Assembly (NCBI RefSeq): GCF_004010195.1
Contig: NC_057759.1
Location: forward strand, 990,163-1,054,162
Reading direction: 5' to 3'
Source: Chiloscyllium plagiosum
Taxonomy: Eukaryota
DNA: 64,000 nt
In this document: one piece after another, positions 5,379 to 61,980 of the stretch
How the letters are laid out: each line of letters begins with the position of its first letter
How positions within the stretch are numbered: position 1 is the stretch's first letter
The notes under the pieces: model-generated
The model's input: the letters and a program-made list of their open reading frames with translations, nothing else
Told to the model about the DNA's origin: nothing
Databases searched by the model: none
Made by a program: the position numbers and the translations under genes

Positions 5379-5479
5379 TTATAAATCTACCTGCACGTTC
5401 TGTGGCAATAGCCGTGGTCTATTTAGATATGAAATGTTACAACCCTTCTTCAAATCGGAGGAGAAAGCAATTCTGTTGC
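5379..5479 (-). pseudogene. Probable FCRL-like terminal cytoplasmic exon
   Basis: Strong acceptor ctttttctctttcattttcag, phase 1, NRIAFSSDLKKGCNISYLNRPRLLPQNVQVDL*. Confidence 0.5.
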
Positions 5480-6070
5480 CTGAAAATGAAAGAGAAAAAG
5501 ATGAGAAGGAACTCTTTGCAGGTATTAGCGATTCGATCTGGAACCTGGAGGGCTGATCAACACCAAAGACGGAGCTGCATCTTGTGAAATTGTAGTGTGC
5601 TTTTGTCATTTTTTTGAAAAAAATCAGTGCAATACTTTCTAAATTGTGTCCCTCTCAATCAATCCAGACATTTCAGAATATTGCATTTAGAAAAGTCGAA
5701 ACTGTTGAAACCCAGCAATTGGTATTCTGACCATTAAGTCGGTGTATCAGTTTTTACTATGCTTGTCAGTGCAACACCTTCGACAGGCCGCCTTAATCTC
5801 GTCAGCCTTTGCATCACTTGCTCAGTAGTTGTTCATTAAAGACAGGAGTGAACTATTCAGTTTCCATACATTTGGGTTTTAACTGCTGTATGCTGCTAGT
5901 TCAGTGTGATTCAGCTGGATGCATGGCTAGTTTTTGCAATGCGTTATATGCCAAACCTTGCCATCAACATGGTTGCAATTGCCACACCAGCTGAAGTTAC
6001 CCTGAGGCACTCTCGCCTTCTGAACCTCTCCTCTCTCATAATGCACAATGACCAGCAAATTAATTTTGAT

Positions 6071-6072
<2 letters not shown>

Positions 6073-6118
<46 letters not shown>
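6073..6118. repeat. (CA)n microsatellite running into gap
   Basis: Directly visible. Confidence 0.95.
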
Positions 6119-7086
6119 NNNNNNNNNNNNNNNNNNNNNNNNNNNNNNNNNNNNNNNNNNNNNNNNNNNNNNNNNNNNNNNNNNNNNNNNNNNNNNNNNN
6201 NNNNNNNNNNNNNNNNNNNNNNNNNNNNNNNNNNNNNNNNNNNNNNNNNNNNNNNNNNNNNNNNNNNNNNNNNNNNNNNNNNNNNNNNNNNNNNNNNNNN
6301 NNNNNNNNNNNNNNNNNNNNNNNNNNNNNNNNNNNNNNNNNNNNNNNNNNNNNNNNNNNNNNNNNNNNNNNNNNNNNNNNNNNNNNNNNNNNNNNNNNNN
6401 NNNNNNNNNNNNNNNNNNNNNNNNNNNNNNNNNNNNNNNNNNNNNNNNNNNNNNNNNNNNNNNNNNNNNNNNNNNNNNNNNNNNNNNNNNNNNNNNNNNN
6501 NNNNNNNNNNNNNNNNNNNNNNNNNNNNNNNNNNNNNNNNNNNNNNNNNNNNNNNNNNNNNNNNNNNNNNNNNNNNNNNNNNNNNNNNNNNNNNNNNNNN
6601 NNNNNNNNNNNNNNNNNNNNNNNNNNNNNNNNNNNNNNNNNNNNNNNNNNNNNNNNNNNNNNNNNNNNNNNNNNNNNNNNNNNNNNNNNNNNNNNNNNNN
6701 NNNNNNNNNNNNNNNNNNNNNNNNNNNNNNNNNNNNNNNNNNNNNNNNNNNNNNNNNNNNNNNNNNNNNNNNNNNNNNNNNNNNNNNNNNNNNNNNNNNN
6801 NNNNNNNNNNNNNNNNNNNNNNNNNNNNNNNNNNNNNNNNNNNNNNNNNNNNNNNNNNNNNNNNNNNNNNNNNNNNNNNNNNNNNNNNNNNNNNNNNNNN
6901 NNNNNNGGCTCTCTCTCTCTCTCTCTTTCTCGCACACACACACAGACACACACAGACACACACCTTCCCAGCAACTGAGATCGTGCCATTGTTGAAGCTT
7001 CAATGATTCTACACTCCCCCACCACCGACACCACCCCTACCATCCTATCTCACACGATCGTAGTTCTGAAGTAAAGAGATCTTTAC

Positions 7087-7146
7087 TGGACTCTTTTCTC
7101 TTCTTGGTGGTGACCTCTGAATAAACCAGATCCGCAGTGGTGTTTT
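7087..7146 (-). pseudogene. FCRL-like cytoplasmic exon 4 with ITIM LVYSEV
   Basis: Acceptor ttatttctttgtag, ENTTADLVYSEVTTKKRKES. The donor (A|gtaaag) is less certain. Confidence 0.75.
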
Positions 7147-8914
7147 CTACAAAGAAATAAAGTGCCAGAAGAAACATACATCAATCCGACAGCTTCACTA
7201 TAAAGGGCTAAATGATCCATAGATAAAATGGATAGATAGATAAGAGAGATTGATAGACAAATACATTTAGACTGAGATGATAGGAGCTTGATTAGGAAGA
7301 GGGATGAAGGTTAAACGGGAGAAGGGAGGAGAGTGAGGTTGAGGCACACATTAGCTCCAATTGAGGGGGAGTGGTGTCTTGATCGGCTGAATTGCCGAAT
7401 TATGCTCCTATATCTTATGGTCTCGTGATCTCATCTTGATAGATAGATTGATAAACATGCATACAGAGACATTACATGAGGAAACATTAAGTTAGCCACG
7501 ACCTCTCTAAAGTCTACTGTACCGGAAAAGTGCACCTCGTCATTATCAATTGCCTGGGTGCTCGTGTGTCTGAGGAATCAGATCTTTGCACATAATCGTT
7601 CGTTGTAAACAACCTCTGTTGGACTTCTCAACACCATAGAACTCCGCCCTCAGTTTCCAATGTTACTTGAGATAAAATAAGCATTAATAAGTCGAGCAAA
7701 ACACTCTAATGGAGTACCAATCACAGAATATTAACAGCAGTAGCCGTTTGGAAAAGAGATTGGTTGGAGATAAAGGTCTACAGCACAGAAAAAAAAGCCC
7801 ATTGAGTGTGTGCCAGTCAAAAACAAGCACCTCACTATTTTCTGATCCCACCTCCCCTGCTCTTGACCTGTAGGTTTAGCATCGCAAGTGCACATTTAAA
7901 TTCTTCTTCAATGAGGATTTCTGCCTCTCCCACCTTACAGGCAGTAGCTTCCAGACTTCCCACCACCCTCTGTTATTTCCTTGCCTCCCACTCTGAATCT
8001 AATCCTCCTTACTTCAATGTATGGTGGCCACGGTGATGCAGAAGGCATATGGCATGCGTGACTTCATCGGTCAGGGCATGATGTACAAGAGTTGGCAATT
8101 TATCTTGCAGCTATATAAAATCCTTGTTCGGCCACAATTGAAGAATTGTGTACTGTTTTGGTCGCCACACTACCAGAGGACGTGGAAGCTTTAGAGAGAG
8201 TGCAGAGGAAGGTTTTCACACAGAGAGTGGTAGGACTTTCCAGAAGAGGTGGTAGAAGCAGGCCCATTGGTGATGTTTAAGAGGCATCTGGATGGTTACA
8301 TAAATAGGAAGGGAACAGAGGGATATGGTTTTAAAAAGGCAAAAGGTTTGCTTTTCAGTTTAGTTAAGGCATGATGATCGGCACAGGCTTGGAGGGCTGA
8401 AGGGTCTTTTCCTATCCTGTATTTTTTCTTTTATTTGTTTTGTTTTTTTTTTCTTTTCATGGTCCCCATTGATCCCTCTATCGAGAGGGAAGTGTTTCAT
8501 CCTGTTTCTAAGTTCCTCATCATTTTATACATCTCAAACAAGAAGCCGGGATTGAAGGGTATGGCGGAGAAATCGGGGAACCAGGGACTGAGTTGGATGC
8601 TCACCCGTGATCCTATCAAACGGGCAGAGCAGGCTAGAAGGGCCAAATGGTCTATTCCTAGTTTCTAGGAGAACCGGAGGTTGAATTGATTAGTCAGCCA
8701 TGATTATAAAGAATAGCGGGGCAGGCTAGAAGGACTGAATAGCTTACTCCTGTTCACTACTTACTGCATTCTCCTTCAGCCTCCGCAGCTCCAAGGAAAT
8801 TGGTCTCATCCGAGCCCAACTGACTGCTCAAATGCTTATCCAGAATTTCTACCAGGTTACAGTGCACTGTCACTGTGTGGGGCTCTTTAATCACACCGAT
8901 GCAATGGCACTCAC

Positions 8915-8994
8915 CAGCAGTGTGCGCTGCTCCAACTACTGCATACTCCAGATTGCTGGCTGCTGCCCCTTCACCAGAAGGATGCGATCTAGTT
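8915..8994 (-). pseudogene. FCRL-like cytoplasmic exon 3 with ITIM LEYAVV
   Basis: 80 nt phase 2-1, ITRSHPSGEGAAASNLEYAVVGAAHTA. Pyrimidine tract plus tag acceptor, donor G|gtgagt. Confidence 0.8.
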
Positions 8995-9531
8995 CTAGTA
9001 GAAAGGGGAACAAAAAGAAGACATCATTTCGAACACAAAGCTTTCAAAACAATGTTCAACTGCCATAAAACTGCAAAGCTATCAAACAAACTACAAACCC
9101 CAGCGACACCTGGTATTGCATGGCCCGATGTCTCTGGTTTCCATCCGAACATGGAGTTTTCTAAACCCTGGAGGAGCTGCCCAGTTCTCCATCTTGTTTT
9201 CACTACAGTCCTTTAGGGAAGGTAATCCTCCGTCCTTACCTGGTCTGGGCCTACATGCGACTCCATACCCTGGTTAAATATTACTGCCCTCTGGGGCATT
9301 TAGCGATGGACAACAAATGCTGTCCTAGCCAGTGACAGTATCATCCCTGTGAATGAATGAAAGCTGTCTGGGATCTTCCTAGAATATAGTTTCCTGATTT
9401 GTCGATAATATGCATGTTAAAAAGATATCCAAGCTCCCTGTATGACTTCTTGATTTCTGTTATCTTTCCCTGACTGCGAGGAATCGGGATAAACAATGGC
9501 AAATATAAAAACTGTAGTTTAGGTCACTTAC

Positions 9532-9562
9532 ATCCTGGGCTGTGACACAGTAGACGAATTGC
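9532..9562 (-). pseudogene. FCRL-like cytoplasmic exon 2
   Basis: 31 nt, acceptor ttctctctttccctgcag, donor |gtaagt. Phase 1 in, phase 2 out, matching the next exon (GNSSTVSQPR). Confidence 0.7.
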
Positions 9563-9733
9563 CTGCAGGGAAAGAGAGAATATTCTCAGCATCATTTACA
9601 GTAGTGCTGCACTGTCACAGACAGGAGCTACCAAAGTGTTATCTCAGTCAGAAACAGGGATCGTACACATCATTAGATGATAGTTGTCAAACCTATCTTA
9701 ATGCATTAAACAGCTTAACATTAAACAGCTGCA

Positions 9734-10160
9734 TAGGGTTAGGGTGATGGGTAGGGTTAGGGTGAGGGTTAGGATTATGATAACGTTTAAGGTTAGTGTT
9801 AGGTTGAGGGCTGCGGTTAGAGTAATGTTAAGAGTTAGGTTTAAGGTTAGAGTTACGGTTAGGTTTATGGTTTGGATTAAGGTTAAGTTTAGTTAAGGTT
9901 AGAAGCAGGGTTAGGTTTAAGGTTAGGACTAGGGTTAGAGTTAGGGTTAGGATCAGCCTTAGCTGTATCGTTAGGGCCCATGTTAGAATTAGGGCTAAGG
10001 TTGTGATTGAGTTACGTTTAAATTTAAAGCTCAGAATTTGCGTTAAGGATGGGTTTGAGTTTATGGTTAAGTTTAGTTTTAGGGTAAGGGTTAAGGTTCA
10101 GCTAGGTTAGAATTTAGGGTTCGGCTGCGGGCTAGGGTTCAGCTTATGTATCAGGTTAGG
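9734..10160 (+). repeat. Degenerate (TTAGGG)n interstitial telomere-like tract
   Basis: About 430 bp of hexamer-phased ttaggg/ttaagg/ttagag/tgaggg variants. Confidence 0.8.
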
Positions 10161-10404
10161 TCAGCCTGCCCAATGGATACTGAATAATTTTAAGTAAGAA
10201 ATAAACATTGTTTAAACGAGTCACAGTTTCAAGAGAGTGAAGCAGGAAAGTGAAGTTGATCCAGATGGATTGCATTAAATAACAGAGCAAAATCCTGAGG
10301 GGCTGAATGGGCTCTTTCTGCTCCTAGCACTCATGGTCTTACGTCTCTCCTCCTCTCTCAGGTGCTCTGACACAGTGTGGTGGAGTGTGGTGGGTCACAG
10401 TTAC

Positions 10405-10512
10405 CTGATCCAGCAGGCTAACTTTGTGAGTGCTCTCCCTCCCGACTGTCAGGAACACGGTCTACTTTAGTTCCCGACCCATCACCTCCTTCCCCCGGCT
10501 TCCCACATTCAG
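10405..10512 (-). pseudogene. FCRL-like cytoplasmic exon 1
   Basis: 108 nt phase 1-1, AECGKPGEGGDGSGTKVDRVPDSREGEHSQS*PAGS. TAG at 10418-10420, acceptor tttacag, donor G|gtaact. Confidence 0.6.
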
Positions 10513-10590
10513 CTGTAAAGTTACATTCTGGCGGGGATGGCAGTGTCATGGTGTGGGGATGTGGAACATATCCCATGGGATGTTACAGAC

Positions 10591-10689
10591 CTGTGGAGCT
10601 TCGGTGGATGTAGTACCACAACAAAATCATACTAGCCAACAGCAGACCTGGGAGGAGCGACACCACGATTTCCTTGGAATAATTCTGAG
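10591..10689 (-). pseudogene. FCRL-like transmembrane exon
   Basis: 99 nt phase 1-1, AQNYSKEIVVSLLPGLLLASMILLWYYIHRSST. Uncharged hydrophobic stretch followed by HR. Confidence 0.8.
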
Positions 10690-11523
10690 CTGGAACCCAA
10701 CACGAATATTCAGCTCACGTTAACAAATTCACCATGAAATGTTATCACATCACCCCTGTGTGAGGTACACAGTTAACATCGGATTGACCAATCCCCACAG
10801 ATATGGAACTCCTTGCCACCATGGAGGCATAGAGAGTCTCACAGTGTGGGAGAATCCGGCCCATTGAGCTATCTACACCAATCCCACTTTTCCACACTAA
10901 CCCCCAACAGCCTTCAGTGTTATGACACATCAAGTGCTCATCCAAGTACTTTGCAAAGGAAACAGTTACCCTGCCAGGCAACATGTTCCAACCCCCAACA
11001 CTCCTTGGGTGAAACAATTCTCAAATTCCCGCTTTATACCTCCCGTCCTTCACTTTGAAATGACCACCACCACCCCCCCAATCCCAGCACTTGTTGCAGA
11101 CACTTTGACTATGGGAACACCTGCTTCCTACTCCCCAGTCCTTCCTCTCACAATCTTACACATCTCAATTGGGTTCCCCTCTCAGCATTTATTGTTCCAT
11201 TGAAAATATCATAAGATTATCCAGCCTCCCTCTCCTCCTCCCTAAAATCCAGGGAAAATCGTGATATATCTCTTTTGCATACTGCCCTCTCCATGGGGCG
11301 TGCAATTCCAGGTTATTATTGCATTCAAATTCCACTATCTTGTATGGGCAGGATCCCAGGAACATCACGCACCATCACGTTGGATCAATAGCCTATTACA
11401 ATACCACCCAGCTATCACCTCACCAACTGAGATGGTTAACAGTGTCTGATTGGCACAGATTGGATGGAGCGAAAAGGCCGTTCTCTCTGCTCTGTCTATG
11501 TTCGATCCGAGTGCCACTGTTAC

Positions 11524-11826
11524 CTCCCAGTGTGAATTCGATGTAGTCGCTCGTCATATTAAAAATTGTGTTGTTGGTTCCTTTGTTGATTGCTGCACAA
11601 TGATACCTCCCGAGATGGTTTCTCTAGAATGAATGAATAGCCAGCTCACCACCATCGGCAGTCACATGGTAACCTGCACTGCTATTTCTTAGCAGCACGT
11701 TGTCATGGTACCAAAGGAACAGGGGCTCAGTGCCTTCCCTCACCCGACACCAAGGAACAAGGTGATCCCCGGAATGTATCTCAGTTCCGTTAATGAAGTA
11801 AATCAGCACAGCATCTGTGACGGGAA
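11524..11826 (-). pseudogene. FCRL-like Ig domain exon 6 (membrane-proximal)
   Basis: 303 nt, VPVTDAVL...WCRVREGTEPLFLWYHD...LAIHSF*RNHLGRYHCAAIN...SDYIEFTLG. TAG at 11624-11626, donor G|gtaaca. Confidence 0.88.
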
Positions 11827-12811
11827 CTGAGGAGAAAACACACCGTGATCAAAAAGCATGGAGTTTGCCCATTGATTCAGATCGTCAGTGAGAATCAGTT
11901 TGACACAATGATTTTAAAAGAGAGTTAGGGAATTACTTATATTCAAAAGCTAATGTAATGGGTGGATGTTATTAAACTAGAGAGAATACCGAAGAAATTT
12001 ACAAGGATGCTGCAAGGATTCAAAACTGAGAGTTTTCGGGAGAGGCTGGGTAAGCTAAGCCCTTTTCCTTTTAAGCGTAGTAGACTGAGGGGACATCTCA
12101 AAGAAGTTTAAACAATTATGAGAGGCATGGTTGGGGTGAATGCACTCAGTCTGTTCCCCAGTGTTTTGGAGCCGAGGCTAGAGGGCATCAGATTAAGGTT
12201 TGACGGGAATGAATAAAAGGGAAAACTGAAGAACAACTCTTTTACACACGGGGTGGTACGCATATGGAATGAGCTGCCAGTGAAAGTGGTTGAAGAGGAG
12301 ACATCAAACAATATTTAAAAGTCGTTTGGGCAAGTACATGGATAGGAGTGGTTTGGAAGGATATTGGACCAAGTGCAAGGACATTGGGTTAGCGTGAATG
12401 GACAATTTGGTAGGCATGGACCAATTTGAGCAGAAGGGCCTGTTTTCCTGCCATAGGACTCTATGATTCTGATGTCGAAGGCTGTGCTGCTTTTGTTTTG
12501 AGAAGTGTGATGCTGGAAAAGCATAGTTGACATTTCGAGCATAAGTTCTTCATCACATTCCTGATGAAGAGCTTATGCCCGAAACATCGACTCTCCTGCT
12601 GCACGGACTTTTCCTAACCAGCTGTGCTTTTTCAGCATCATACCTTTTGACTCTGAGCTCCAGCATCTGCAGTCCTCTCTCTATGGTTGTGTTGCTTTAG
12701 TCAAAAGTGTGGTTTTTAAGGACGAAGCACCGGCTTTGCTTTGGTCTCAGCAGAGTATTTCCTGTGCTGATGGTTCATTTACTCTTTGGGAGAGAGTCCT
12801 TGTGAACTCAC

Positions 12812-13089
12812 CCATCACTGTGATCTCCATGACTGCGCTGTGCTGAGGGCCTGTCACCTCATTTCTCACTGACCAGTGGTAAAGCCCTTCGTCTCTCCTG
12901 CTGATAGGCCCAATGTTGTAAACAAACTCAGTGCTCTTGGAAAGCTCCCGGTACAGTTTCACACTTGAGCTGTTGTAGAATTGGTAATAAATAGGCAGTG
13001 AACCATTGAACAGACTAAGGGTCCTGTGTCTCCTTCAATTAGATCCTTTCCGGGTAGAATTGTTAGTTCCGGTTTTGGCACTGGAATTC
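12812..13089 (-). pseudogene. FCRL-like Ig domain exon 5
   Basis: 278 nt (frameshifted): RIPVPKPELTI...EGDTGPLVCS / NGSLPIYYQFY...DEGLYHWSVRN...SAVMEITVM. The F-strand Cys position is Trp (12873-12875). Donor G|gtgagt. Confidence 0.85.
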
Positions 13090-13569
13090 CTGTAATCATG
13101 GACAAATGATAGATCATTGTATTTTCTGGAGTTAATTGCAAACTCATTTATGAACATCATCACAGACAAAAAAACGCATATCCTTTTGTTTTTGTTCATT
13201 GGTTGGATGTAGGTGTCACTGGGTCGTCCAGTATTTCTTGCTCATCCCTAACTACACAGAGGGCAGTTGACGGTTGTCCGGCTGCAATCAACCTTTGGAA
13301 TTGAATTCAGATTCTCTCATCTGTTATGGTGAGAATTCTTAGGACATAAAAAAGTACAGCACAGGGACAAATCCTTCAACCCACCGTGTCTGCGCATGAC
13401 GGTGACATCATTCTGTATGAATTCCATCCGACGACATGTGGTCCGTATCCCTCTACTCCCTACATATTCAAGTGTCTGTCTACATGCCTCCTAAACATTG
13501 CTATCATGTTTGTTTCTACCAACTGCTCAAGCAGTGTGTACCAGGCATTTACCACTCCTTGTGTGAAAT

Positions 13570-15340
13570 CATAGAGTCATAGAGATGTAGCGCAGCTTTA
13601 GTCCAACTCGTCAGTGCCGACCAGGTATCCTAAATTGATCTAGTCCCATTTGCCAGCACTTGACCCTTATATCTCTAAACCCTTTCAATTCATATACCCA
13701 ACCAGATGCTTTTTAAATGTGGTAATGTTACCAGCCTCCACCACTTCTTCTGACAGCTGATTCCATCGACGCACCATCCTTTGTTTGAAACAATTACTCC
13801 TTAGGTCCCTTTTAAATTATTCCCCTCTCACCCTAAACCTACGTCCTCCAGTTTTGGACACCCCAACCCCACACCCAAGGGAAAAGCCTTTGTCCATTTA
13901 CCCAATCCATACCCCTGATGATTGTATAAACCTCTATAAGGTCACCTCTCAGCCTCCAATTACCCAGGGAAAGCAACCCCAGCCTATTCAGCCTTTCCTG
14001 GATAGCTCAATTCCTCCAACCCTGGCAATATCATTATAATTTTTTTTCCTAAACCCTTTCAAGTTTCACAATATCCTTCCTTTCGGAGGGAAACCAGATT
14101 TGTACACATTATTCCAGAAGTGGCCTAACCTATATGCTGTACAGCTACAACATGACCTACAAACCGCTGTACTTAACGTCCTAACCAAAAAAGGAAAGCA
14201 TACTAATCACCTTCTTCACTAACTTATCTATCTGTAACTCCACTTTAAAGGAACTGTGAATCTGCACTCCAAGGTCACTTTGCTCAGCAAACCCAGAATC
14301 TTACCATTAAGTGCACAGGTTTTGTATTGATTTTCCTTTTTAAAATGCAGCAACTCACATTAATCCAAGTTGCACTCCATGTGTCACTCCTCAGCCCATT
14401 GCCACATCCAATCAAGATCCCGTTGTACTCTGAGGTAAACTTTCCTCGCATATCTCCTTTAAACGCTCCTCCTCACACGTTAAAGTTGTGCTCCCCATCC
14501 TCGTATTTGACATTTACAATCTGGGAGAGAGATACTGACCATCCACCCTGCCCATTTTGTATACGTCAGTCAGGTCCCACTCCAGCCTCCAATGCGCTCG
14601 TGAAAACAATCCAAGTTTGTCCAACCTCTCCTCATATTTCACATACTCCAATCCAGGCAACATCAAGGTAAACCTTTGCACCTGTTTTGCACCTTCTCGA
14701 AAGCCTCCACATCTTTGTTGTAGTGCAGGCAAAAAAATCTGCACATATGCTCCAAATGTGGCAAAAAAATAAAGTCTTATACAGCTGCAATATGACTTGC
14801 CAACATTTCTACTCATTGGCTCGACTGATGACAGAAAGTATGCCATAAGGCTTCTTTACTCATATCTCCTTTAAACGCTCCTCCTCTTTGCACCTGTTTT
14901 GCACCTTCTCAAAAGCCTCCACATCTTTGTTACAGTGCAGGCAAAAAACCTGCACATATGCTCCAAATGTGGCAAAAAAATAAAGTCTTATACAGCTGCA
15001 ATATGACTTGCCAACATTTCTACTCATTGGCTCGACTGATGACAGCAAGCATGCCATATGGCTTCTTTATCACGTTATCCACTTATGTTGCCATTTTCAG
15101 GGAACTATGGACTTGCACCCCAAGACCCTCTGTATATAAATGCTCCCAAGGGTCCTGTCATTTATTGTGCATTTTACTCTCGCATTTCACCTCTGAAAAA
15201 TGTATCAGCTCACATTATTCAGGATTAAAATCCATCTACGGATTCTGTGCCCAACTTTCAGACTGATCTATATTCTTTGACAAACCTCCTCACTGTCCAC
15301 CAACACCACCGAATTTCATGACATCTGCAAATTTACTAAC
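13570..15340 (-). mobile_element. Nested CR1 LINE fragments with internal tandem duplication
   Basis: CR1 3' ends (MLPGLE..YEERL.KLGLFS). 14675-14858 is repeated at 14888-15069. Confidence 0.75.
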
Positions 15341-15868
15341 TAGACATGGAAAGCGCAAGAAAAATGTTATTGACATTCGTGAGACATCCAGGGTCGCAGT
15401 CTAAAGGACATGGAGTAAGACTGAGATAGGTATGATTGCCTGCACCAAGAGAGCGGGGAGCCTGTGGAATTTTCTGCCATAAAAAGTGGTCGGAGCTGAG
15501 GCATTGAATGTTGTTCAAGAAGGCAGTGAATGGAATTCTTAAGGGTAAAGAAGAGAGTAAGTGGACAAGGAACTGAGTTGGAAGATCAGCCACAATCCTC
15601 GTGAATGCATAACAAACTGGAAGGACTGGATGGCCTAGTGCCATTTACATGTTTCCATAATTTTCTGGGCGATGAATCCCACAGGCTTCTCACTCTCTGT
15701 GTGAAGACATTTCTCCCAATCTCAGTCCTGAATGGCCCACCCAATGCCCTGTGCTCCTTGTCTCTAGCTCTCCAATATATGTCTGTGAGATGTAGGGGAG
15801 TGATGATAAATTGTCTCTATTCTGAGTCTTTAACAGTTAAGAAACGGACAATGATAAATGATACTTAC

Positions 15869-16141
15869 GCCTGATGGGCAAAGGGAGCTAATTACTCCGT
15901 TTCCACACCTTCCCATCTGTGACTTCACAATGATAAGTACCCGAGCCTGCCAGACGAGCTGACTCAGTGACGTAATCGCTGTAATCAGCTGGAGACTGGA
16001 GAAGGACCCCATTTCTGTAAAAACTGTACCGTAAGGACGCTTGGGAGGGATTCCCTTCAACCCAGCACACCAGTTTAACCCTTTGACCATCAAACAGCTG
16101 TCCCTCAGGACGCATGATCAACATAGCGACAGCGAACGCCT
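15869..16141 (-). pseudogene. FCRL-like Ig domain exon 4
   Basis: 273 nt, ...PEGQLFDGQRVKLVC...LRYSFYRNG...GSGTYHCEV...KRSN*LPLPIR. TAG at 15888-15890, donor C|gtaagt. Confidence 0.88.
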
Positions 16142-16859
16142 CTGAAAAGCAAAAGGACATGTTTCTGTTTGAGCCTGTAGAGTGTCTGGGCTTGGGTAAG
16201 CTCAGTGATCAGAACGAGAGCAAGAAAATCACGAGGCGGGGCCAGTGCAGGAGATTCCTAACAATCTTTCAATGTCAATCAAGAGTGTCATCATCGTGCT
16301 AGCTCCAGGTCAGATTTGGGGATGATCGTGATCGCATTTGGAATAAATAAATACAACCACAGCGAGAGTACTCGGTTATGGAATCCACATTCTAGGATGG
16401 ACAGGACAGTACTGGGAGAGAGTGCAGAAGGAGATTTACCAGGAGCTGTAGAGATTCAGTGATGGAGAGAGAGTGGATAGATTTGGGTTGTTTTCCTTAG
16501 AGCAGAGGGTGGAGGTTATGATGGAGATTTATTAAATGATGAGGGGTGTAGATAGGGTATACAGGAGGGAACCTTTCCCAATTGGTGGAGGGAGGGGGAC
16601 ATCGATTAAAGGTAAGGTACAGAAGATTTAGAAGGGATGAGAGGAAACACATTTTTACTCAGATTATCTGGAACTCACTGCCTGTTAGGGTAGGAGAGGT
16701 AGAAACCCCCATTAAATTGAAGAGTGTTTAGAAGTGCACTCGCGAGGCCAAGTACCACATGTTAGGAAAATAGGGATTAGATAATAGTGAGGTGGCTGTT
16801 TTTGACTCGATGGGTCGAAGGGCCTTTAATTTGCGCTGGGGATAATGACAGATAGCTAC

Positions 16860-17141
16860 GTTTAATGGAAATGTGAATGCTGTTGCTCCTTTTCCTTAGA
16901 CTGTAAACTGTGTTAATCGCTTCACAGGCGTAATTCCCATAAACTTTTGCAGCCGCTGCGTTGATGGTGTACACGCTGTCTTGATCAGGCACGGCCTCCA
17001 GGACGGCGCTGTCTTTGTAAAATGAGTAGTGAAGCTGGATGAAGGGTTGTGCCACCGAGACAGTCCACGACAGGGTGACCGGGAGGCCCTCGAGCACTTC
17101 AGGCGCCAGTTCCACCCTCAGCACGGGCTTGGTGAATCGTT
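16860..17141 (-). pseudogene. FCRL-like Ig domain exon 3
   Basis: 282 nt, ERFTKPVLRV...EGLPVTLSW...YSFYKD...GNYACEAIN...KRSNSIHISIK. The B-strand Cys position is Trp (17065-17067). Confidence 0.85.
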
Positions 17142-18466
17142 CTGGAATGTAACACACAATTGGGACTCATTAATCTACTGTTATGATCACAAAGCCAAAT
17201 CCACAATTGCGACCCGGGATGAAGGATGTGAGCATTTACTGACCAAGGACAGGAGAGAGGGAGAAATTTTATCTTTCTCTTACTTTCCAAATTTAAAATT
17301 ATTTTTTGATGGCACTGCAGTCATAGAATCATACAGGACAGAAACAGAGACTTTGGCCTAACTCTGCCAAGCTAACCAGGTTTCCCAAACTGATTTATTC
17401 CTATTTGTCTGTATTTGCCCATGTCCCTCTCCAGCGTTGCCATTCACATATTTATCCAAACGCCTTTTAAATGCTGAAATTGTATCTTACTTCAAACGCC
17501 TTTTAAATGCTGAAATTGTATCTTACTTCTCCAGTACTTCCTCTGGCGGCTCATTCCGTACATGCACCACCCTCTGTGTGGAAATTTTGCCCCTCAGGTC
17601 TTTTTCAAATCTTTCCCTTCATCTTAAAGTTATACCTTCTTGTTTTGGACTCCCCAACACCTTGCTTGAATCACCTTATCTCTGCCCCTAATGACTTTAT
17701 TAACCTCAATTCCAACACCAGCTGAGGTGGTCACGAAGGAATCTACATCTCCACCTCTCCCCTTTACTGAGGCGTGGTACTCCTCAGATTCGACCACAAC
17801 CCAGTTCCCTCTCTCACTGATTAAAGAGTGGGACCATGGGTGACTTTACTCATACTATTGTAAAAGGAGGACTAACAAACGAGATGTGGATAGAATGTTC
17901 CCTCGTATGGGATAATCTGGCACGAGACGTCGCTGCTTCATTAGAAGGGTTTGGGGACAGATTCAAAACAGAGATGAGGAGGAATGGCTCCTCTCAAAGG
18001 CAGGTGAGCAGGGTGGGAGGTGATGAGTGGAGAGCTAATGAGCTCTGTTATTTTCTCTGGAGCAGACAAAGTTGAGGGGGTACCTGACAGATTTGTGTAG
18101 GATTGTGGACAGGATGAATCGAAAACAGCTGTTTCCCTTGGTTGAAGAATCAGTAACAAGGAACTCATCAGTTCTAAATGAAAGAAAGGAGGTTTGTAGG
18201 GGGACTGAGGATTGTTTCACCAACAGGATGGCGAGGGTCTGGAATGCCCTGCCTGGAAAGGTAGTTGAGGCAGGAAACCACACAAACTTTAAAAAGTAAA
18301 TGGGTGAGCACTTCAAGGGTCATAACGTTCAATACAATGCGGAAAAGTGGGTTTGAAAAAAGGGCCCCTTCTATACTGGATAATTGAGAATGCCTCCTGT
18401 GTTTAAATTAACAATTGAGACCAGTATGCACATTGTCTACCACAGAATGCAAACTCAAGTACGTAC

Positions 18467-18721
18467 CTTGTACCTGAACTTTAACATTTCGTGATTCAGA
18501 CCAATCAATTTTACAACTGTACCATCCACTGTCATCGGTGCTGTTTACTTTAATGTTATATGATGATTCACGTCATGAGAGCCACATTGAATGGATCTTC
18601 TTGCCATTTCTATAAAAGCCAAAGTTCTTCTTCCACCAATTTGTAAGGGTATTTGTGAGTATTTGTACCGACAATTCAGTTTTAGGGTTTCTCCTTCCAA
18701 AAGTGAAACTGGGACACATTT
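18467..18721 (-). pseudogene. FCRL-like Ig domain exon 2 (degenerate; missed by ORF track)
   Basis: LLEGETLKLNC lies in one frame and NWWKKNFGFYRNGKKIHSMWLS*RESSYNIKVNSTDDSGWYSC...RNVKVQVQ in another. TGA at 18573-18575, donor G|gtacgt. The 5' boundary is uncertain. Confidence 0.8.
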
Positions 18722-20345
18722 CTATTTAAATCAAAGGTAAAGTTGCATCATCACAGCTGACCGTAGACGTTTGTTACATTGGAAACTGCTCCTGAAACAT
18801 TCACGATCACTGATAATTTATTGCCCAAGTACATTTTCAAGTATCGGCCAGCCAATCCCCAATATTTTATACAATCCAGTCCAGAGAACTACTGCCAGTT
18901 TGTTTTCAACGTCCCTGGAATGTTAAGTACAATTTTGGAACCCCTAACCTGAGGAGAGCTCATAAGACCAGGACAAAAAGAAGCAGGAGTATGTAATTTG
19001 GCTACCAAGTCCCCTCCACCTTAAAGCGATCAGACCTCAAGGCTATAAGACGTATGAACAGAATTAGGTCGTTCATCCTATCGAATCTGCTCCTCTATTC
19101 AATGAGACCATGGTTGATCTGATCTTTAGGTAAAAACCAGGGCTACAGATGCTGAAAACCAGATTCTAGATTAGAGTATTGCTGGAAAAAAACATGAACT
19201 GCTGTGATTTTCCAGCATTACTCTAATCTTGATCTGATCATTGTCAACTCCACTTTCCTGCCTTTTTGTCCCATAAACCTCGATTCCCGTCCCAGCTTTA
19301 AAATCTGTCTATTTTACCCTCAAATATATTAAATGACCCAGCCTTGACAGCCATCCGAAGTAAAGAATGCCAAAGACTCACTCCCCTCGGAGAGAAGAAT
19401 TTCCTCTTCATCTCCATTTTTAATGGGTAATTCCAAACGCCCACGCCCCGCCTCTGCCTCGTCCTTATTCTGAGATGATGGCCCTCTGGACTATGCCTCA
19501 CCCACACAAGAGTAAACAACCTCTCTCCAAATATAGCCTGTCAAGTACTCTAGCAATCTTCAAAAAGGTGGCCTCTGATTCTACTAACTTTCAATGAGTG
19601 AAGGCCCAACCTATTCAAATTCTCCTCGTGAGAAATTACTAACTCCCATGTGAGGTACCACACTTTACATAAGTGACTGACTGAGCAAAACTAAAGTTTC
19701 AGCATTAAATCATGTTGAAACATTTGCATTTGTTTGAAATTTGTTTGAAGGTCAAGAAAATGGTGCAGTTTTGGTCGCCACACTACCATAAGGATGTGGA
19801 AGCTTTGGAGAGGCAATTTAACTTGTTTACCAAAATAATGCCTAGTTCGGAGGGTATTAACTAAGAGCAGATATTGCACAAATTCAGCTTGTTCTTGCTT
19901 GAATGTCAGAAAGAAAAGGATGACGTGATTGAAGTTTTCAAAATTATGAGCTGTATGGGTCGAAAGGATTGTCAGAGCCTTTTTCCCAGCGTCGGAATGT
20001 CAATTACTCAGTTACAGGTTTAAGGAAAAAAAAGATTCTAAGAAGATGTAAGGAGCACCTTCTTTTCCAGAGAGGGTAAATACCTGAAATTCACTGCCAG
20101 AGGATGTGGTGGAAGCAGATACAATACAAATTTTTAAAAGGCGTTTGGCAGATAAATGACCAGGCAGTAAATAGAGGGACATGGACAGCCGTGCAGTAAA
20201 AGTGTTTCAGTTTAGATAGGCATTATGTTGCAGCACAGTCTTGCGAGGCTGAAAGGACTCTCCAGTGCTGTATATTCTTTGAACACTGTGCACTCCACTT
20301 CCATGCAATTTTAAAAAATGTAAATGAAAGTCAAAGTTCGCTTAT

Positions 20346-20591
20346 CCGTGACGACAACTTCAACAGTTTCACTCTTTTGCCATGAGTTGTATGTCTCACA
20401 GTGATAAGACCCGCCACTTTCATTGTTCGCGAATGTTTCATAAATATTACCCCATCCATAAGCGAAAAACTGTCCATTTTTGTAAAAATAAACAGCCCGT
20501 CTTTTTCCTGTCCCACATTGAAATTTTAAAGTCTCTCCTTCTTTTACAAATCCATTTGTAGCATATACTTTAAGTACGGGCCTTCCAAAAG
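20346..20591 (-). pseudogene. FCRL-like Ig domain exon 1
   Basis: 246 nt, AFGRPVLKVYATNGFVKEGETLKFQC...YFYKNG...ESGGSYHC...KSETVEVVVT. Acceptor follows a (CT)n tract. The expected donor reads ataagc rather than gtaagc. Confidence 0.85.
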
Positions 20592-21329
20592 CTGAAGAGA
20601 GAGAGAGAGAGAGAAGCAGAAAGGTTGAAGACCCAATCATTGCATCATGTTGACCTCTCACTACAATAAACACAGTGTGTAGTTCAGCCTCAGTGTCCCA
20701 GTATAGAGAGTTCCAGTTCAAGTTGTCTATTGACCAAAGGGTACAGTCCAGACAAAAAAGTCTGTACTCGGTGAATTTAGTTGGCACCTAACCATTGATT
20801 GCTTGACACATCGCCTCTGCAGCGCCAACCATTAAGTCAACTTCTTTATTTTTCAAAGGGCTAATTGTTGACAGGCAATAGTTGATTTACTGTTCGGAAG
20901 AGTTAACTGCACAGATTATTTTTAGCTTTATTAGAACCAATTGATTACAATGTAAAAACATTTCTGCAATACTCAATGCTTCGATGAAATCTCAACTCAA
21001 CCTGTGCAGCTGAAATGAGAAAGTTCACAATATTATCTTTCTGTATTTTCCATCTGTAGCTACATGTAGACTCGACCAGGTAATGATGGCAGTTTCATTC
21101 CCTTAAGGGCATTAGTGAGTCAAATGGGTTTTTCCAACAATTGGTAGATATTAATTGAATTCAAATTCCACCATCTGCTGTAGGGGTTTTGAACCCAAGT
21201 CCCACGAACATTGTCTGAGGCTCTGATTTAAGAGTCCGGTGATAACGACTCTAGGCCATTGCTACCCCTTCTGAGAGAAGGCAATGGCCTCTACTGAGAG
21301 AGAATTTTACTATCGCCCCCTTCATATTC

Positions 21330-22020
21330 AATTTCGCCATCACTGCATCTTCTCACTATCAACACCTTGGGGATTACTATTAGCAAGAAACTCAGCTGAA
21401 TTCACTATGCTAATATCATGGTGACAAGAGAAGATCAGCGTCTGGGAATATTGCAGCAACTAACTTACCTCCTGACTTCGCCAAGGCCTGTCCACTATTG
21501 ACAAGGCACAAGTCGGGAGTGTGATGGAATGCTCCCCACTTGGCCAAATGAGTGCAGATCCAAAAAACAGCACAACACCATCCAACCACAATGCAGCTCC
21601 CACTTGATTGGTACCACATCCTCAAACATTCGCTTCCTCAAATATCGATGCTCAGTAACAGCAGTGTGTACCATCTACAAGATGCACAGCAGAAATTCAC
21701 CGGAGATGGTCAGACAGCACCAGAAAACTCACTACCACTTCTTTCAGAAGGATAAGGTCAGCCAGTCCATAGGAACACTGCCACCTTCACGTTACCCTCG
21801 AAGGCGCTCAGCATCCCAACTTGGAAATATAACATTCATTCTTCCGTGTCACTGGTTCAAAATCCTGGAATTCCCTCTCCAAGGGTATTGTGGCTCTTCC
21901 TGCAGCACATGCCGGAATGGCTCAAGAAGACAGTTCAATCTCCACCTTCTTAAAGAGAGCAACTAGGAAATTGGTCAACAAATGCTGGGTTCAGCCAGTG
22001 ATGCACATATCCCACGAGTG
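21330..22020 (+). mobile_element. L2/CR1-group LINE 3' fragment
   Basis: Degenerate STIDKAQVGSVMECSPLG, resembling the YKAQVRSVMEYS motif after the RT domain. Confidence 0.55.
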
Positions 22021-23002
22021 AATAAAGTTTCATGTTCCATGCCCCTGCCTATTATAGTCTGTCCGCATTTCCCTCTGTTGTCCTCCCTTACGCTCCTCCT
22101 TGTTTATTACCTTTCCACGCATCTGATCACCTGTTATGGAATTGAGGATCAGAATTGAAGTTAATGTTCATTTATATTTATCATAATGGTTATCATAGCT
22201 AGTTCTGATCAGTACGAGGCACCATTTCATGCTGATGTCCTGTCAAAAACAGACAGAATTGTCCATTTTCCACATTATTGTCTCCAAATATATTGTGTCA
22301 ATGATTACTGCCATTAACTGCCAGTGCCATGACCTTGCATTTTAAAAGGCAAATTTGTAATGTGACTTTAAGTTATAGCTTCCCAAACCCCTTTTTAAGT
22401 AAATCAACGCAGCAGTCATTAAAACTTTCAATTTACTCTCTCGCCAATCTTATCTATCCACTGCTTTCCTAATCATATTTAAGACCTGAAGAGCATGAGA
22501 ATAAGAATATACCATTCAGACTCTTGATACTGCTCTGAAATCCAATTGGATCATGGATGATGCGACATCCCTCACATCCACCTTCTTGCCTGATCCGATA
22601 ATCATTAATTCCCCCCACTGATCAAGAATTTACGTCAGCTTTAAATATACACAAGGACTCTATGGCTAGAATTTCCAAAGACCCCCATACCTGTGAGAGA
22701 AGAAATCACCCCTGATCTCAGTCAGCAATTGCTGCCCCATTACTGACCTGCTGTGCTGTTCCAGCAATAAAGTTTCAACTTTGATCTCCAGCATCTGCAG
22801 ACCTCACTTTCTCCTCCAGGATTGAGTTCCACTAGGATTCTTTTTACAGCAAATTAGCTTGCCAAATTGAGATTGATCACCCTAATGGTCATTCCTTGTG
22901 GATCAGGATGTTGGTGAACTGCAATCCTGCTTCTACTTAGAGACATGAAGTCATGCAGCACAGAAACAGACCCTTCAGTCCAACTAATCTATGCCAGCCG
23001 TA

Positions 23003-23622
23003 GAACATGGAAAAGTACAGCACAGAACAGACCCTTCGGCCCACAATGTTGTGCGGAGGGTTATTCCTAATCTAAAATAAAATATCTTAACCTACGCACC
23101 CCTCAATTCACTGCTGAATATGTGCATGCCCAGCTGTCGCTTAAATGACCCTAATGACTCCGCTTCCACCACCACCGCTGGCAACGCATTCCATGCATTC
23201 ACAACTCTCTGAGTAAAGAACCTACCTCTGACGTCTCCTCTATACCCTTCTCCTAATGTCTTAAACCAATGACCCCTCGTGCAAGTCAGTCCTGCCCTGG
23301 GGAAAAGTCTCTGGCTATTGACTCTATCCATGCCTCTCATTACCTTGTATACCTCGATCAGGTCATCTCTCTTTCTCCTCTCCAGAGAGAAAAGTCCAAG
23401 CTTAGTCAACCTCTCTTCATAAGGCAAGTCCTCTAGTCCAGGCAGCATCCTGGTAAACCTTCTTTGCACCCTCTCCAAAGCCTCTGTATATTTCCTATAA
23501 TAGGGCAACCAGAACTGGACACAATATTCCAAGTGTGGTCTCACCAAGCACTTGTAGAGCTGCAGCAAAACCTCATGGCTCTTAAACTCGATCCCCTTCT
23601 TAATGAAAGTCAAAACACCATA
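23003..23622 (-). mobile_element. Young CR1 LINE 3' end
   Basis: ORF LYKCLVRPHLEYCVQFW...LERVQRRFTRMLPGL...FFTQRVVNAWNALP. Confidence 0.92.
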
Positions 23623-23624
23623 CT

Positions 23625-24168
23625 CGTTGTTGTGGTTCTGTTCGCCGAGGTGGAAGTTTTTGTTGCAAACGTTTCGTCCCCTGGCTAGGCGACATCATCA
23701 GTGCTTGGGAACCTCCTGCGAAGCGCTTCTTTGATGTTTCCTCCGGTGTTTTTCGCGGTCTGTCCCTGCCGCTTCCGGTTGTCAGTATCAGCTGTCCGCT
23801 CTAGTGGTTGGTATATTGGGTCCAGGTCGATGTGTTTGTTGATGGAGTTTGTGGATGAATGCCATGCCTCTACTGGGACAACACTACTATCATAGGGCAA
23901 GCCAGACAGAGAACAGCCAGGGAATTCCTAGAGGCATGGCATTCATCCACAAACTCCATCAACAAACACATCGACCTGGACCCAATATACCAACCACTAC
24001 AGCGGACAGCTGATACTGACAACCGGAAGCGGCAGGAACAGACCACGATAAACACTGGAGGAAACATCAAAGATTCGCAGGAGGCTCCCAAGCACTGATG
24101 ATGTCGCCTAGCCAGGGGACGAAACGTTTGCAACAAAAACTTCCAGCTCGGCGAACAGAACCACAACA
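23625..24168. mobile_element. Penelope-like element 3' end with inverted pseudo-LTR (fold-back)
   Basis: GIY-YIG C-terminus AREFLEAWHS..SIN. Arms about 23628-23872 and 23928-24168 are reverse complements. Confidence 0.85.
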
Positions 24169-24447
24169 GTTGTGGTGGAGTTAAACTTTGATGCAGATTT
24201 ACTGAATAGACTCTGTCCAATGTGACTAAGTCATTGGCCCTCTTTTTAACTGTTGGTATATCCACGAGGGATAAGAGTTGAACATGATTCCAGTGTCTGA
24301 CCTTGCAGAGGATATCCCGAACTCTGGACAGAAAAACAGTGATTAAATCCCAATTGATTCATATTTAAATTGTCACTGAAAAGATGTGCACAGCACGACT
24401 TCAGATTTCCAAATAATTATCCAAAAAAAACCTTGCCGTTCATTCAC

Positions 24448-24477
24448 CTTGGGTGATCCGACAGAGAGCAAGATTCA
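24448..24477 (-). pseudogene. FCRL-like leader mini-exon S2 (L-NLALCRITQ)
   Basis: 30-nt phase 1-1 exon, acceptor ttctgttttccag, donor G|gtgaat. It continues the signal peptide in frame into Ig1 (AFGRPVL). Confidence 0.7.
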
Positions 24478-26117
24478 CTGGAAAACAGAAGGGAATTGAA
24501 ATGCAAATGTCATTATTTGTGAAAGTGTCCTTGAAACGGCAAAGTAAAGACAATATCAAAGCAATATAAGTGGATATGCAGCAGAGAAACAACACCTGTC
24601 CTGTCTGTAACTCAATGTTAACTGTTAATTGTTCACTCTCTTTGAAGTGTACACAGAAATATGAATTTATATCAACATGTGAGGACCCATTGGTTTCTTC
24701 ATCCTTGTCACATTCCAACTGCCAATTTTGCTTTGTACCTTTCTGTCTTTTATTTATCCCCTCGTTTTGCCTTCCTGCTTTCTCTCTGCTTAGGTTCCCA
24801 TTTCATTTGTAATTGTTCTTACACAAATAAAGGTCTCTGGAAATCTAGATTTCTTGTAAAATAAAGTACGTTTGGGAAAATGATTGCAAAATGAATAAAG
24901 TCACATGATTCTGCGTTTCCTGCCTCAGTGTGATTCTTAGAAACCCCCAAAGTCAGCCAAGTCTCACCAATGACCACACTGAGACTTCTAGCTCAGCGAC
25001 GATAGGCTACTCTTACAACGAAACATCTCTGAAGAGTTTTGAGCTTGTTGTGCATCGCCCTCTCATCTAAAATTACTTCGCAAGAGAGCAAGAAACATCT
25101 CCAGTCTACATTCAGAGCTGGAGAGGTCTACAGCATAGAAAAAGGCCCACCAGCTCATCGAGTCTGTACCAGTCTAAAACAAACACCTCATTATTCTCGA
25201 ATTCCATTTTACCAGCACTTAGCCCCTAGCCTTGGTGTCGCAAATTGACATCTAAATCATTCTTCAATGTAATGAGAGTTTCTGCCTCTCCACCCTTTAC
25301 AGGCAGGGAGTTCCAGATTCCCCATCACCCTCTGCGTGAAAATGCTTTACCTCACATCCCCATGTAAAACTCCTGGTATTTGTTTCCTACCTATGCATTC
25401 TATCTGCCTCGTCCCTATCATTAATCCCTCCACCAAAGAGGAAAACTATCTCCTTGTCTATTCTATCTAGTCGACATCATCATTTTTTGCATCTCAGTCA
25501 TGTCTATTCTATCTAGTCGACTTCATCATTTTTTGCATCTCAATCATGTCCCACCCCATCCCCCCTCTCAATATCCTCTGCTGTGAGGAAAATTACCCCA
25601 GTCTCTTGAAGTTATCTCCATCATTGCAATTCTTCAATCCCCAAGGCAACATCCTCGTTAATCTCCTAATGTTGATGGAATGTGATGGCATATCCATTCA
25701 TTGCTCAGTGACATATCTCGCCTCTATATTGTTGCTGATTGTCCTTCCTTTTGTGCGATTCTGAAATTCTTCTGATCCGCCCATGACTTAACATTTTTAG
25801 GTCTGATTGCCCAAGTGTGTGTAACATGTATCCTTTTCCGATAAGATCAAATAATGTTGTCCGAAGTGGGAACAAAGGACATGATGAAATGATTATTGTT
25901 TTCTCTCTCTCAAAATATTATCGTCCATGTTGCCAATTTGTTTCATTCCAGAATTTTGCCAAGTTTGATTTTTTTTTATGTTGGCCACAGTCATTAGATT
26001 CTGCTTTGTGTATCTGAGAAGGAAGTGTGGGGTTATCTACTGCAGAACTTAATCTCACGTGACCGGGTAACAGCACAGGTTTGTCACGGGTAAGGTCCCT
26101 TAGAAACACACACTTAC

Positions 26118-26148
26118 AGAGAATCAGAAGCAAGGAGGTCTGTATCAT
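26118..26148 (-). pseudogene. FCRL-like exon S1 (signal peptide first half, MIQTSLLLIL)
   Basis: ATG at 26148, 31 coding nt, hydrophobic, strong phase-1 donor T|gtaagt. An in-frame upstream ATG lies at 26175. Confidence 0.75.
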
Positions 26149-60928: not shown

Positions 60929-61463
60929 TTAAGGAGAGAGTATCTTCTGTTGTTTTCTGAAGTTTACTGTCAGGCTCTTTAGATATTTGAGGGCACTCTT
61001 CAACTCTGCCCTGAATTTACTCTGAGTTCCAGCATAAATAAATGGTTTGATACAAGAACTCAAAAGCTGAAGCATGATTCTGATTTCTTCCAGAATAAAG
61101 TTTGATTCGCTGGAATTGTTTCCGGAAAAATAACTGACTCTAGCAAACCTGACGTACAGGAAAGTTATGAGAACCCAAATCCATAAGAGTATGAAGTTCC
61201 CTGAGATGGCGAAGAGTAAAACAATAGACTTTCTGTGGTTCTCCATCTCAAGGTCACATTTACCTCTATTGCTCTGGCCGCTAGAATGTGCCTGACAGTC
61301 CGAGCATTGAGCAGCAGAATCAGCGTGAAAGCGAGACAAGGCGTTAAAATACGAAGAGTCCTGTCATATGCTACCCAAGCTGATGACGTATTAAATATTA
61401 TTTTAACGCTGCAAAACCAGGGTGTATTGTTAATTATGTACAAAGGTTCAGATATGAAATACA
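60929..61463 (-). pseudogene. GPR139-like GPCR copy B, 3' half (ECL2-TM7)
   Basis: EPLYIINNTPWFC...TPCLAFTLILLLNARTVRHILAA / ENHRKSIVLLFAISGNFILLW...MLQLLSSCIKPFIYAGTQSKFRAELK. It has a 28-bp deletion relative to copy A. Confidence 0.88.
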
Positions 61464-61980
61464 TGAGTGAATCAGATTTATTTTACCTCTTTTTTTATCA
61501 ATATGTAGTATGTAGTTGTATAAATAAAAGGGACTGAGAAGTATGAAAGAACAGATGGGAGGGAAAACAATTAGTACATATATATATTTCCGGTGGCCAA
61601 TAATCTTCAGAGGTCAAACGACCCCAGTGGAGAAACGCTGGTGGAGAACTGGCAGTGGCTAATCATCGGCGTCGAATCTTCCGTGGCGAATCGTCACCAA
61701 CCAATAATTCATATCAGCATGTCAATTATTAATGAGCATGCATATTGCCAGCAAAGAAACCGTACAGGCTAGGAAAGTGTTAGCTTTCAAATGAGTTTTG
61801 GAGATTGATCTTAAAAAAACTACATAAAATCTGATTGTCTTTTGAATAGGTACATTTTTCTTTGCTATCCCAACCAGCACTCCTCCTGACCTCTCATCCC
61901 CACCATTCCTACCACCAACAAACCACGCAGATACACTTTCCCTCATTTCCTGTACGCTCACCTACGTGTGTATGTTACAG

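Follow-up and report, generated by a model that had tools for sequence, protein, structure and literature searches.

A pseudogene in a shark tandem cluster of ITIM-bearing Ig-domain receptors, probably of the FCRL family

The window analysed here is a stretch of 64,000 nucleotides (nt) from the shark Chiloscyllium plagiosum (G000:C50:990163-1054162), located on C50, a scaffold of about 8 Mb. On its minus strand lies a gene of which 13 exons were recovered with splice signals, from position 26148 to 5445. The exon set consists of a split leader, six immunoglobulin (Ig) exons, an uncharged transmembrane (TM) exon and four tail exons, and one terminal exon is placed in an assembly gap. We describe this gene as a dead copy in a tandem cluster of receptors that likely belong to the Fc-receptor-like (FCRL) family and whose tails carry immunoreceptor tyrosine-based inhibitory motifs (ITIMs). 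The exon joins are taken from database protein models. The features, in window positions, are as follows.

26118..26148, minus strand: leader exon 1 (ATG, 31 nt, phase 1); length and GT donor are the same in 6/6 aligned paralogues
24448..24477, minus strand: leader mini-exon (30 nt); 30 nt with AG/GT in 6/6 aligned paralogues
20346..20591, minus strand: Ig exon 1, a shark-specific FcR-D1/D2-like domain; open frame; donor GT changed to AT
18467..18725, minus strand: Ig exon 2, FCRL D2 type; acceptor AG changed to AA; 13-nt deletion and 14-nt insertion; TGA at 18575-18573
16860..17141, minus strand: Ig exon 3, FCRL D3 type; first Cys changed to Trp
15869..16141, minus strand: Ig exon 4, FCRL D3 type; TAG at 15890-15888
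12812..13089, minus strand: Ig exon 5, FCRL D5- or PECAM1 D6-like; 7-nt deletion; second Cys changed to Trp
11524..11826, minus strand: Ig exon 6, FCRL D6 type; TAG at 11626-11624
10591..10689, minus strand: TM exon; hydrophobic core without a charged residue
9532..9562, minus strand: tail exon 1 (31 nt, phase 1 to 2)
8915..8994, minus strand: tail exon 2, with ITIM 1, LEYAVV, at 8951-8934; two in-frame acceptors, 8994 and 8988
7087..7146, minus strand: tail exon 3, with ITIM 2, LVYSEV, at 7129-7112
5445..5479, minus strand: tail exon 4 (35 nt); donor GT changed to GG
3040..3539, minus strand: assembly gap, probable site of the terminal exon (ITYATL-type ITIM 3 and YxN), judged by paralogue introns and contig C97252

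Pfam finds Ig families in all five of the Ig exons submitted to it (E 1.6e-9 to 0.044). A single ITIM hexamer is no proof here, because 73 such hexamers occur across the six frames of positions 3540-26290. The exon set as a whole is beyond chance, since the genomic paralogues contain the same exons in the same order and database protein models join them. An earlier note on this DNA had described a leader, six Ig domains, an uncharged TM segment and a multi-exon tail, and these are indeed present; it had also called the architecture complete, which it is not, since the terminal exon is missing from the sequence and is assigned to the gap. It counted 14 phase-compatible exons; we recover 13 in the sequence and place one more in the gap. 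Not all of the exons are splice-compatible, as the D1 donor reads AT and the D2 acceptor AA. It counted two ITIMs, but the family tail has three ITIMs followed by a terminal YxN motif. A candidate exon of 41 nt at 10445-10405 was rejected: it has frame-breaking indels in paralogues, and the models splice the TM exon directly to 9562.

The leader was regarded in the same note as a hallmark of the family. A 31-nt exon and a mini-exon are present, but they measure 31 and 30 nt, not the 30/21 of mammalian FCRL genes (PMC2413239; papers are cited here by such numbers, from excerpts of their text). The D1-D6 domain subtypes and the leader rule are defined in that paper, according to which the 30/21-bp rule holds for mammalian FCRL1-6 and for only a fraction of the Xenopus XFL genes, and is not family-wide. 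The shark genes depart from it: the second leader exon is 30 nt long in the window and in all six aligned paralogues.

The 3' end of the gene was initially placed at a stop at 5379. In all seven aligned paralogues the donor of tail exon 4 is a GT after 35 nt, whereas the window has GG; because this donor is dead, the stop at 5379 is intron read-through beyond an internal exon, and we rejected it as the gene end. Paralogue proteins carry a further, terminal exon with the third ITIM and the YxN motif. In each of six paralogues tested, the alignment between the window and the intron in front of this exon breaks off at 3540, the gap edge, with 47 bases left to the terminal exon. From this we infer that the true last exon of the window gene falls in the run of N at 3040-3539. 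An unplaced contig, C97252, shows the terminal exon with an open frame; its identity to the window is 98% at the gap edge, 95-97% in three other blocks and 87% in one. It is either a second haplotype or a very recent duplicate of the window gene. This contig, near-identical to the 3' half of the gene, is itself broken, and its D6 exon was lost by a deletion of about 340 bases.

The window copy is a pseudogene. Premature stops interrupt Ig exons 2, 4 and 6, and the frame is shifted by a 13-nt deletion and a 14-nt insertion in Ig exon 2 and by a 7-nt deletion in Ig exon 5. Three splice sites are dead (the D1 donor, the D2 acceptor and the donor of tail exon 4), and Cys-to-Trp changes have removed two cysteines, in domains 3 and 5. 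Selective constraint was assessed by the ratio of nonsynonymous to synonymous rates (dN/dS), using private changes only: the window copy has 48 nonsynonymous and 16 synonymous changes of its own (ratio 0.91 of neutral), against 23 and 22 in an intact sister copy (0.32; Fisher p 0.014). These counts replaced a polarised dN/dS comparison (0.56 vs 0.52) in which shared changes had been counted on both branches. It is hardly credible that the copy is nevertheless alive, with lesions that are assembly errors or with a shortened splice form that works. The draft assembly does have gaps, models of paralogues do skip domains, and exon skipping is possible because all the Ig exons are of phase 1-1. However, ten lesions are scattered along the gene, dN/dS is neutral, and once all the broken exons are skipped a single domain remains, minus its disulfide. 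In addition, two lesions are found again in other contigs: the stop of Ig exon 4 in the unplaced contig C43021, which is 100% identical to the window over 15570-17030, and the deletion of Ig exon 5 in C97252.

Genome-wide, 13 sequences match the terminal exon; 11 of these fall on C50, and other exons of the family are scattered along this scaffold from 0.47 to 7.08 Mb. Nine paralogous copies were examined in detail. Two look intact, one at 1.48-1.50 Mb with six Ig domains and one at 4.89-4.94 Mb that has eight Ig domains, including a D1-D2-D3 unit, and in which an ITIM exon is duplicated. The other seven comprise two with one damaged Ig exon that the database models skip, one that is without two tail exons, near gaps, and four that are broken. 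The copy number of Ig domains varies, and four of the examined copies have an extra Ig exon, of D1 type, after domain 1; it is absent from the window copy, where a search for a remnant found none. Between paralogues with open frames, dN/dS is 0.79 for domain 1, 0.92 for domain 2 and 0.35-0.47 for domains 3-6. Judged by these ratios, which do not prove positive selection, the distal end of the receptors changes faster. Since the distal domains diverge fastest between paralogues, the copies likely differ in ligand. The tandem cluster evolves by birth and death, and the window copy is one that died. Note that 19 of the 37 genome matches to histone H1 also lie on C50 (0.10-6.71 Mb), interspersed with the receptor cluster; human FCGR1A likewise adjoins a histone cluster.

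Other genes of related kinds occur on the same scaffold. Just before the window, at 959-965 kb, there is a headless copy (D6, TM and tail) whose D6 is frameshifted and whose ITIM-1 exon is doubled. A more distant second subfamily, resembling the database protein P0092 and having the same domain types and tail, is found at 2.50-2.53, 4.10-4.12, 1.19 and 5.51 Mb, and several of its copies are broken. A third kind of Ig gene, for which no TM or tail was located, lies at 5.146-5.165 and 3.37-3.38 Mb; the stretches most similar to its Ig exons are FCRL D1-like and D5-like parts of proteins from turtle, gar and paddlefish.

The databases already hold the family under automatic names, and the window copy itself is an ordinary pseudogene. 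Database proteins labelled Chiloscyllium plagiosum match the cluster exons almost letter for letter, and the elasmobranch proteins P0001-P0027 and P0061-P0070, intact and annotated, are the family itself; the six-domain layout of P0012 is identical to that of the window gene. The names are inconsistent, including FCRL2/3/5/6, FcgRI-like, PECAM-like and HSPG-core-like. Relatives are found in carpet sharks, mackerel sharks, ground sharks, the horn shark, a sevengill, a sawshark and two rays; no chimaera protein occurs among the 60 matches of the protein search, nor among the 30 named of 150 representatives.

The family to which these receptors belong was examined by comparing their Ig domains with those of known receptors. 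The tree input consisted of 21 proteins, the window exons and eight exons from scaffold C24 (153 domains), from which 6 near-duplicate rows were dropped; the main tree has 147 domains and 88 columns, and its bootstrap had not settled. In this tree, domain 2 groups with FCRL D2 (98/91), domain 6 with FCRL D6 (98/83), and the extra paralogue domain, which has no counterpart in the window copy, with FCRL D1 (98/94); domains 1, 3/4 and 5 form shark-only clades whose position the tree does not settle. Class profiles, calculated as hidden Markov models (HMMs), select FCRL D2 in 6/6, D3 in 8/8 and 7/7, and D6 in 7/7 shark domains, while pairwise scores for domain 2 choose FCRL D3 in 5/6. For the D3 types, pairwise scores too give FCRL D3 as the best class in 8/8 and 7/7. 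For domain 5 the HMM prefers FCRL D5 in 7/8, and pairwise scores are split with PECAM1 D5/D6. When whole proteins are compared with 14 references, the best match is FCRL-named for 7/7 shark proteins. Among PDB structures, window domain 3 matches D3 of human FcgRI and of FCRL5, as well as FCRLA, and window domain 1 has weak matches to FcgR domains (E 5e-5). A top PDB match to FCRL5 was rejected as sole evidence, as a bird PECAM1 control also ranks FCRL5 first. Two structural resources are uninformative: the ESM Atlas gives 0.97-0.98 for FCRL clusters and 0.97 for PECAM1 and so does not discriminate, and a Foldseek search with the AlphaFold model of P0004 (mean predicted local distance difference test score 72.8, predicted template modelling score 0.42) returned generic multi-Ig matches.

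Outside the Ig fold, the tail gives the clearest signal. An HMM of the shark tail scores above all 50 shuffles for 13/14 FCRL tails (8-33 bits) and for 0/8 PECAM1 tails, and the last three tyrosine motifs are in register with the FCRL tails of turtle, gar and frog. At least one ITIM consensus is present in all but one of 26 shark and ray proteins, and a central charged TM residue in 0/26 (one model is without a TM segment, and in another an Arg stands at the end of it). No activating-type exon with a charged TM segment was found among the TM candidates in the loci examined, which are a partial sample.

Several observations count against membership in the FCRL family. Reference labels are mostly automatic names, and three differently named frog proteins were counted as FCRL. 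Domain 1 fits no class in the tree or in the profile scores, and window domain 5 scores 35.3 bits as PECAM1 D6 and 31.5 as FCRL D5. Single-domain trees are weak. A re-aligned tree of 35 rows yields the same groups with lower support (D2 74/64, D6 84/68), and approximately unbiased (AU) tests on it do not reject domain 2 being placed with PECAM1 D2 (p 0.16) or PECAM1 D1 (p 0.06). A D3 tree of 31 rows does not settle the placement: the best tree joins the shark D3 types to PECAM1 D4 with 13/80 support, and a clade of shark and FCRL D3 domains, absent from it, is not rejected (p 0.10). The shark-tail HMM also places 3/4 CD22 tails above shuffles, at lower scores of 2-9 bits, and some of the PECAM1 records in the tail comparison are partial. 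On scaffold C24, outside the cluster, a gene at 37.395-37.398 Mb, which we take to be possibly C17orf99-like, has D5-like and D6-like exons, the latter nesting with FCRL D6. Finally, synteny with the FCRL locus, which is linked to CD2/SLAM, IGSF9, TAGLN2, ETV3 and FcR gamma, was not seen on C50, as sampled with three markers: the Pfam families of calponin repeats, ETS and zeta/gamma chains gave no match there. Genome-wide, the zeta/gamma-chain TM family has a single match, at G000:C12:49769721-49769807, which may be CD3 zeta or FcR gamma.

These points bear on two rival explanations. According to one, adhesion receptors of the PECAM1-like kind, with six Ig domains, a TM segment and an ITIM tail, expanded in sharks to form the cluster. 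The gross layout is identical, several database records are named PECAM-like, the ESM Atlas puts PECAM1 just behind FCRL, domain 5 is ambiguous and the D3 tree does not separate the groups. This explanation is largely refuted, and we consider it very unlikely. Four exons on C24 best match PECAM1 D1, D2, D3 and D6, and the gene groups with PECAM1 D1, D2 and D3 in the 35-row tree (D3 97/96), so that shark PECAM1 lies elsewhere than the cluster. The AU test on that tree rejects a placement of domain 6 with PECAM1 D6 (p 0.04), no PECAM1 tail is matched by the shark-tail HMM, and no PECAM1 chain is among the PDB matches listed for the shark proteins, whereas the bird PECAM1 control finds such chains at about 100 bits. 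The grouping with PECAM1, CEACAM or Siglec proteins that the earlier note named as evidence against its proposal was not observed for domains 2, 3, 4 and 6 or for the tail, and domain 5 is ambiguous; CD22/Siglec and CEACAM have lower scores for domain types 2-6 and the lowest whole-protein scores, with mixed results for domain 1. No LITR-named sequence turned up in the general protein searches, none of which was aimed at LITR, and a generic search with the ig family for genes of the leukocyte receptor complex type placed none on C50 among the 150 of 1280 candidates scored, a result that carries no information either way.

The other explanation is a sister lineage that arose from a domain pool common to FCRL, PECAM1, MILR1 and C17orf99 by independent exon shuffling, working in an FCRL-like manner but descending from a separate ancestral gene. 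The shark-specific first domain, the separate clades of the shark D3 and D5 types, the occurrence of D5- and D6-type exons in C24 genes too, the lack of synteny markers found on C50 and the interspersed histone H1 genes would all agree with it. We nevertheless regard it as improbable, since the domain order D1-D2-D3(n)-(D4/D5)-D6-TM is collinear with that of turtle, caecilian, frog and gar FCRL proteins, and the three-tyrosine tail aligns with their tails motif by motif, which independent shuffling would not readily yield. The shark receptor cluster thus likely belongs to the FCRL family. The proposal in the earlier note of a dead member of an FCRL-like family of cartilaginous fish with intact ITIM-bearing paralogues is upheld by the lesions, the neutral drift, the database models, the tree, the profiles and the tail HMM.

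The shark PECAM1 gene occupies 48.062-48.096 Mb of C24. Only its D1, D2, D3 and D6 exons were found, D3 and D6 being about 0.85 kb apart, and it may have four domains. It is followed by two D5-type exons, which we assume to be possibly MILR1-like.

The intact proteins of the cluster are type I membrane receptors, and with their uncharged TM segment and ITIM tails they would probably be braking receptors, likely on B cells. In a single-cell study of a bamboo shark, "fcgr1a-like, fcrl3 and fcrl5" are high in B cells (PMC11372145), and its supplement lists as B-cell markers LOC122544517 (log2 fold change 4.75, 43% vs 3.7% of cells) and the PECAM-like LOC122544513 (4.45, 48% vs 3.2%). The description of LOC122544517 matches the name that P0011, a paralogue located at C50 6.97-7.00 Mb, has in the database, and the gene numbers next to the B-cell markers are those of histone H1 genes. 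LOC122544517 is probably this cluster paralogue, as judged from its name and the adjacent gene numbers rather than from an accession.

By analogy with ITIM biology, binding of a ligand by the membrane-distal domains would bring the receptor beside one that activates, for example the B-cell receptor. Src-family kinases would then phosphorylate the three ITIMs, phosphatases of the SHP-1/SHP-2 type would be recruited, and the activating signal would be damped. YxN motifs bind adaptors of the Grb2 type, and the terminal YxN motif would do so here. As for the ligand, other self or pathogen surface ligands are slightly favoured; polymeric or complexed Ig is a tentative candidate, and major histocompatibility complex molecules are rather unlikely. 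An intact paralogue is put forward, as a doubtful candidate, for a B-cell Fc receptor with which sharks would bind polymeric IgM (or IgW/IgNAR). Human FCRL5 binds two IgG Fc via D1-D3, but it is the only one of human FCRL1-6 to bind IgG, and no binding to IgG or IgM Fc was observed for mouse FCRL5, in the excerpts of PMC12757038. FCRL membership therefore does not imply Ig binding.

Apart from the receptor gene, the window contains two broken single-exon genes of rhodopsin-type G-protein-coupled receptors, at 35224-36030 and 60929-62303 on the minus strand (Pfam 7tm_1, E 2e-5 and 7e-5). Both sit in a segment that is duplicated locally at about 87% identity (32.1-36.1 kb vs 58.3-62.3 kb).

If sharks and rays have FCRL genes, as is likely, this contradicts printed statements that cartilaginous fish have none. 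A survey in 2014 found no FcRL in sharks (PMC4016189), a review in 2026 repeats that FCRL is lacking in cartilaginous fish (PMC13337447), and both ask how sharks manage Fc-dependent functions. Our literature search, whose scope excluded most subscription journals, found no paper describing the shark family, and the excerpts of PMC5278576 and PMC7916592 added nothing on it. The presence of FCRL in sharks and rays would move the origin of the family to the jawed-vertebrate ancestor, alongside antibodies. The same holds for one of its domain types: D6, called Xenopus-specific in PMC2413239, is present in sharks and in turtle, caecilian and gar proteins, which would make it ancestral rather than frog-specific. 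The two intact genes, at C50 1.48-1.50 Mb and 4.89-4.94 Mb, can be named as candidates for Ig binding. If a paralogue is an Fc receptor for shark IgM, antibody feedback inhibition via FCRL would go back to the common ancestor of jawed vertebrates, and there would be a candidate gene for the "Fc receptor for shark IgM" named in the title of a 1988 paper that PMC6795676 cites.

Among known systems, PECAM1 shares with the shark receptors six Ig domains, a TM segment, a multi-exon ITIM tail and a related domain pool; it differs in being a separate shark gene on C24, in its unmatched tail and in its domain types. Human FCRL5 (PDB 9loc; PMC12757038) and FcgRI resemble the shark proteins in their D2-D3 type domains, ITIM tail and B-cell expression, which for the shark is inferred, and their D1-D2-D3 order recurs in the paralogues that keep the extra exon; unlike the setting of human FCRL5, sharks are without IgG, and the window copy is without a D1-type exon. 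With the inhibitory TM2 class of Xenopus XFL, as far as the excerpts of PMC2413239 describe it, the cluster shares a large tandem family, a split leader, phase-1 Ig exons, the D2, repeated D3 and D6 subtypes, an uncharged TM segment and tyrosine motifs on separate exons. The shark genes differ from XFL in an extra shark-specific N-terminal domain, a mini-exon of 30 nt instead of 21, no clear D4, no charged-TM activating member in the loci examined and no CD2/SLAM-linked synteny seen. The best non-shark matches of whole proteins are the FCRL3-named proteins of tortoise (P0028), paddlefish (P0112), gar (P0030) and caecilian (P0099), at about 27% identity. These names are automatic, and in the proteins D4 and D5 take the place of a single ambiguous domain of the shark; their domain types are collinear with those of the shark receptors, and their tail has two ITIMs and a terminal YxN motif in register with the shark tail.

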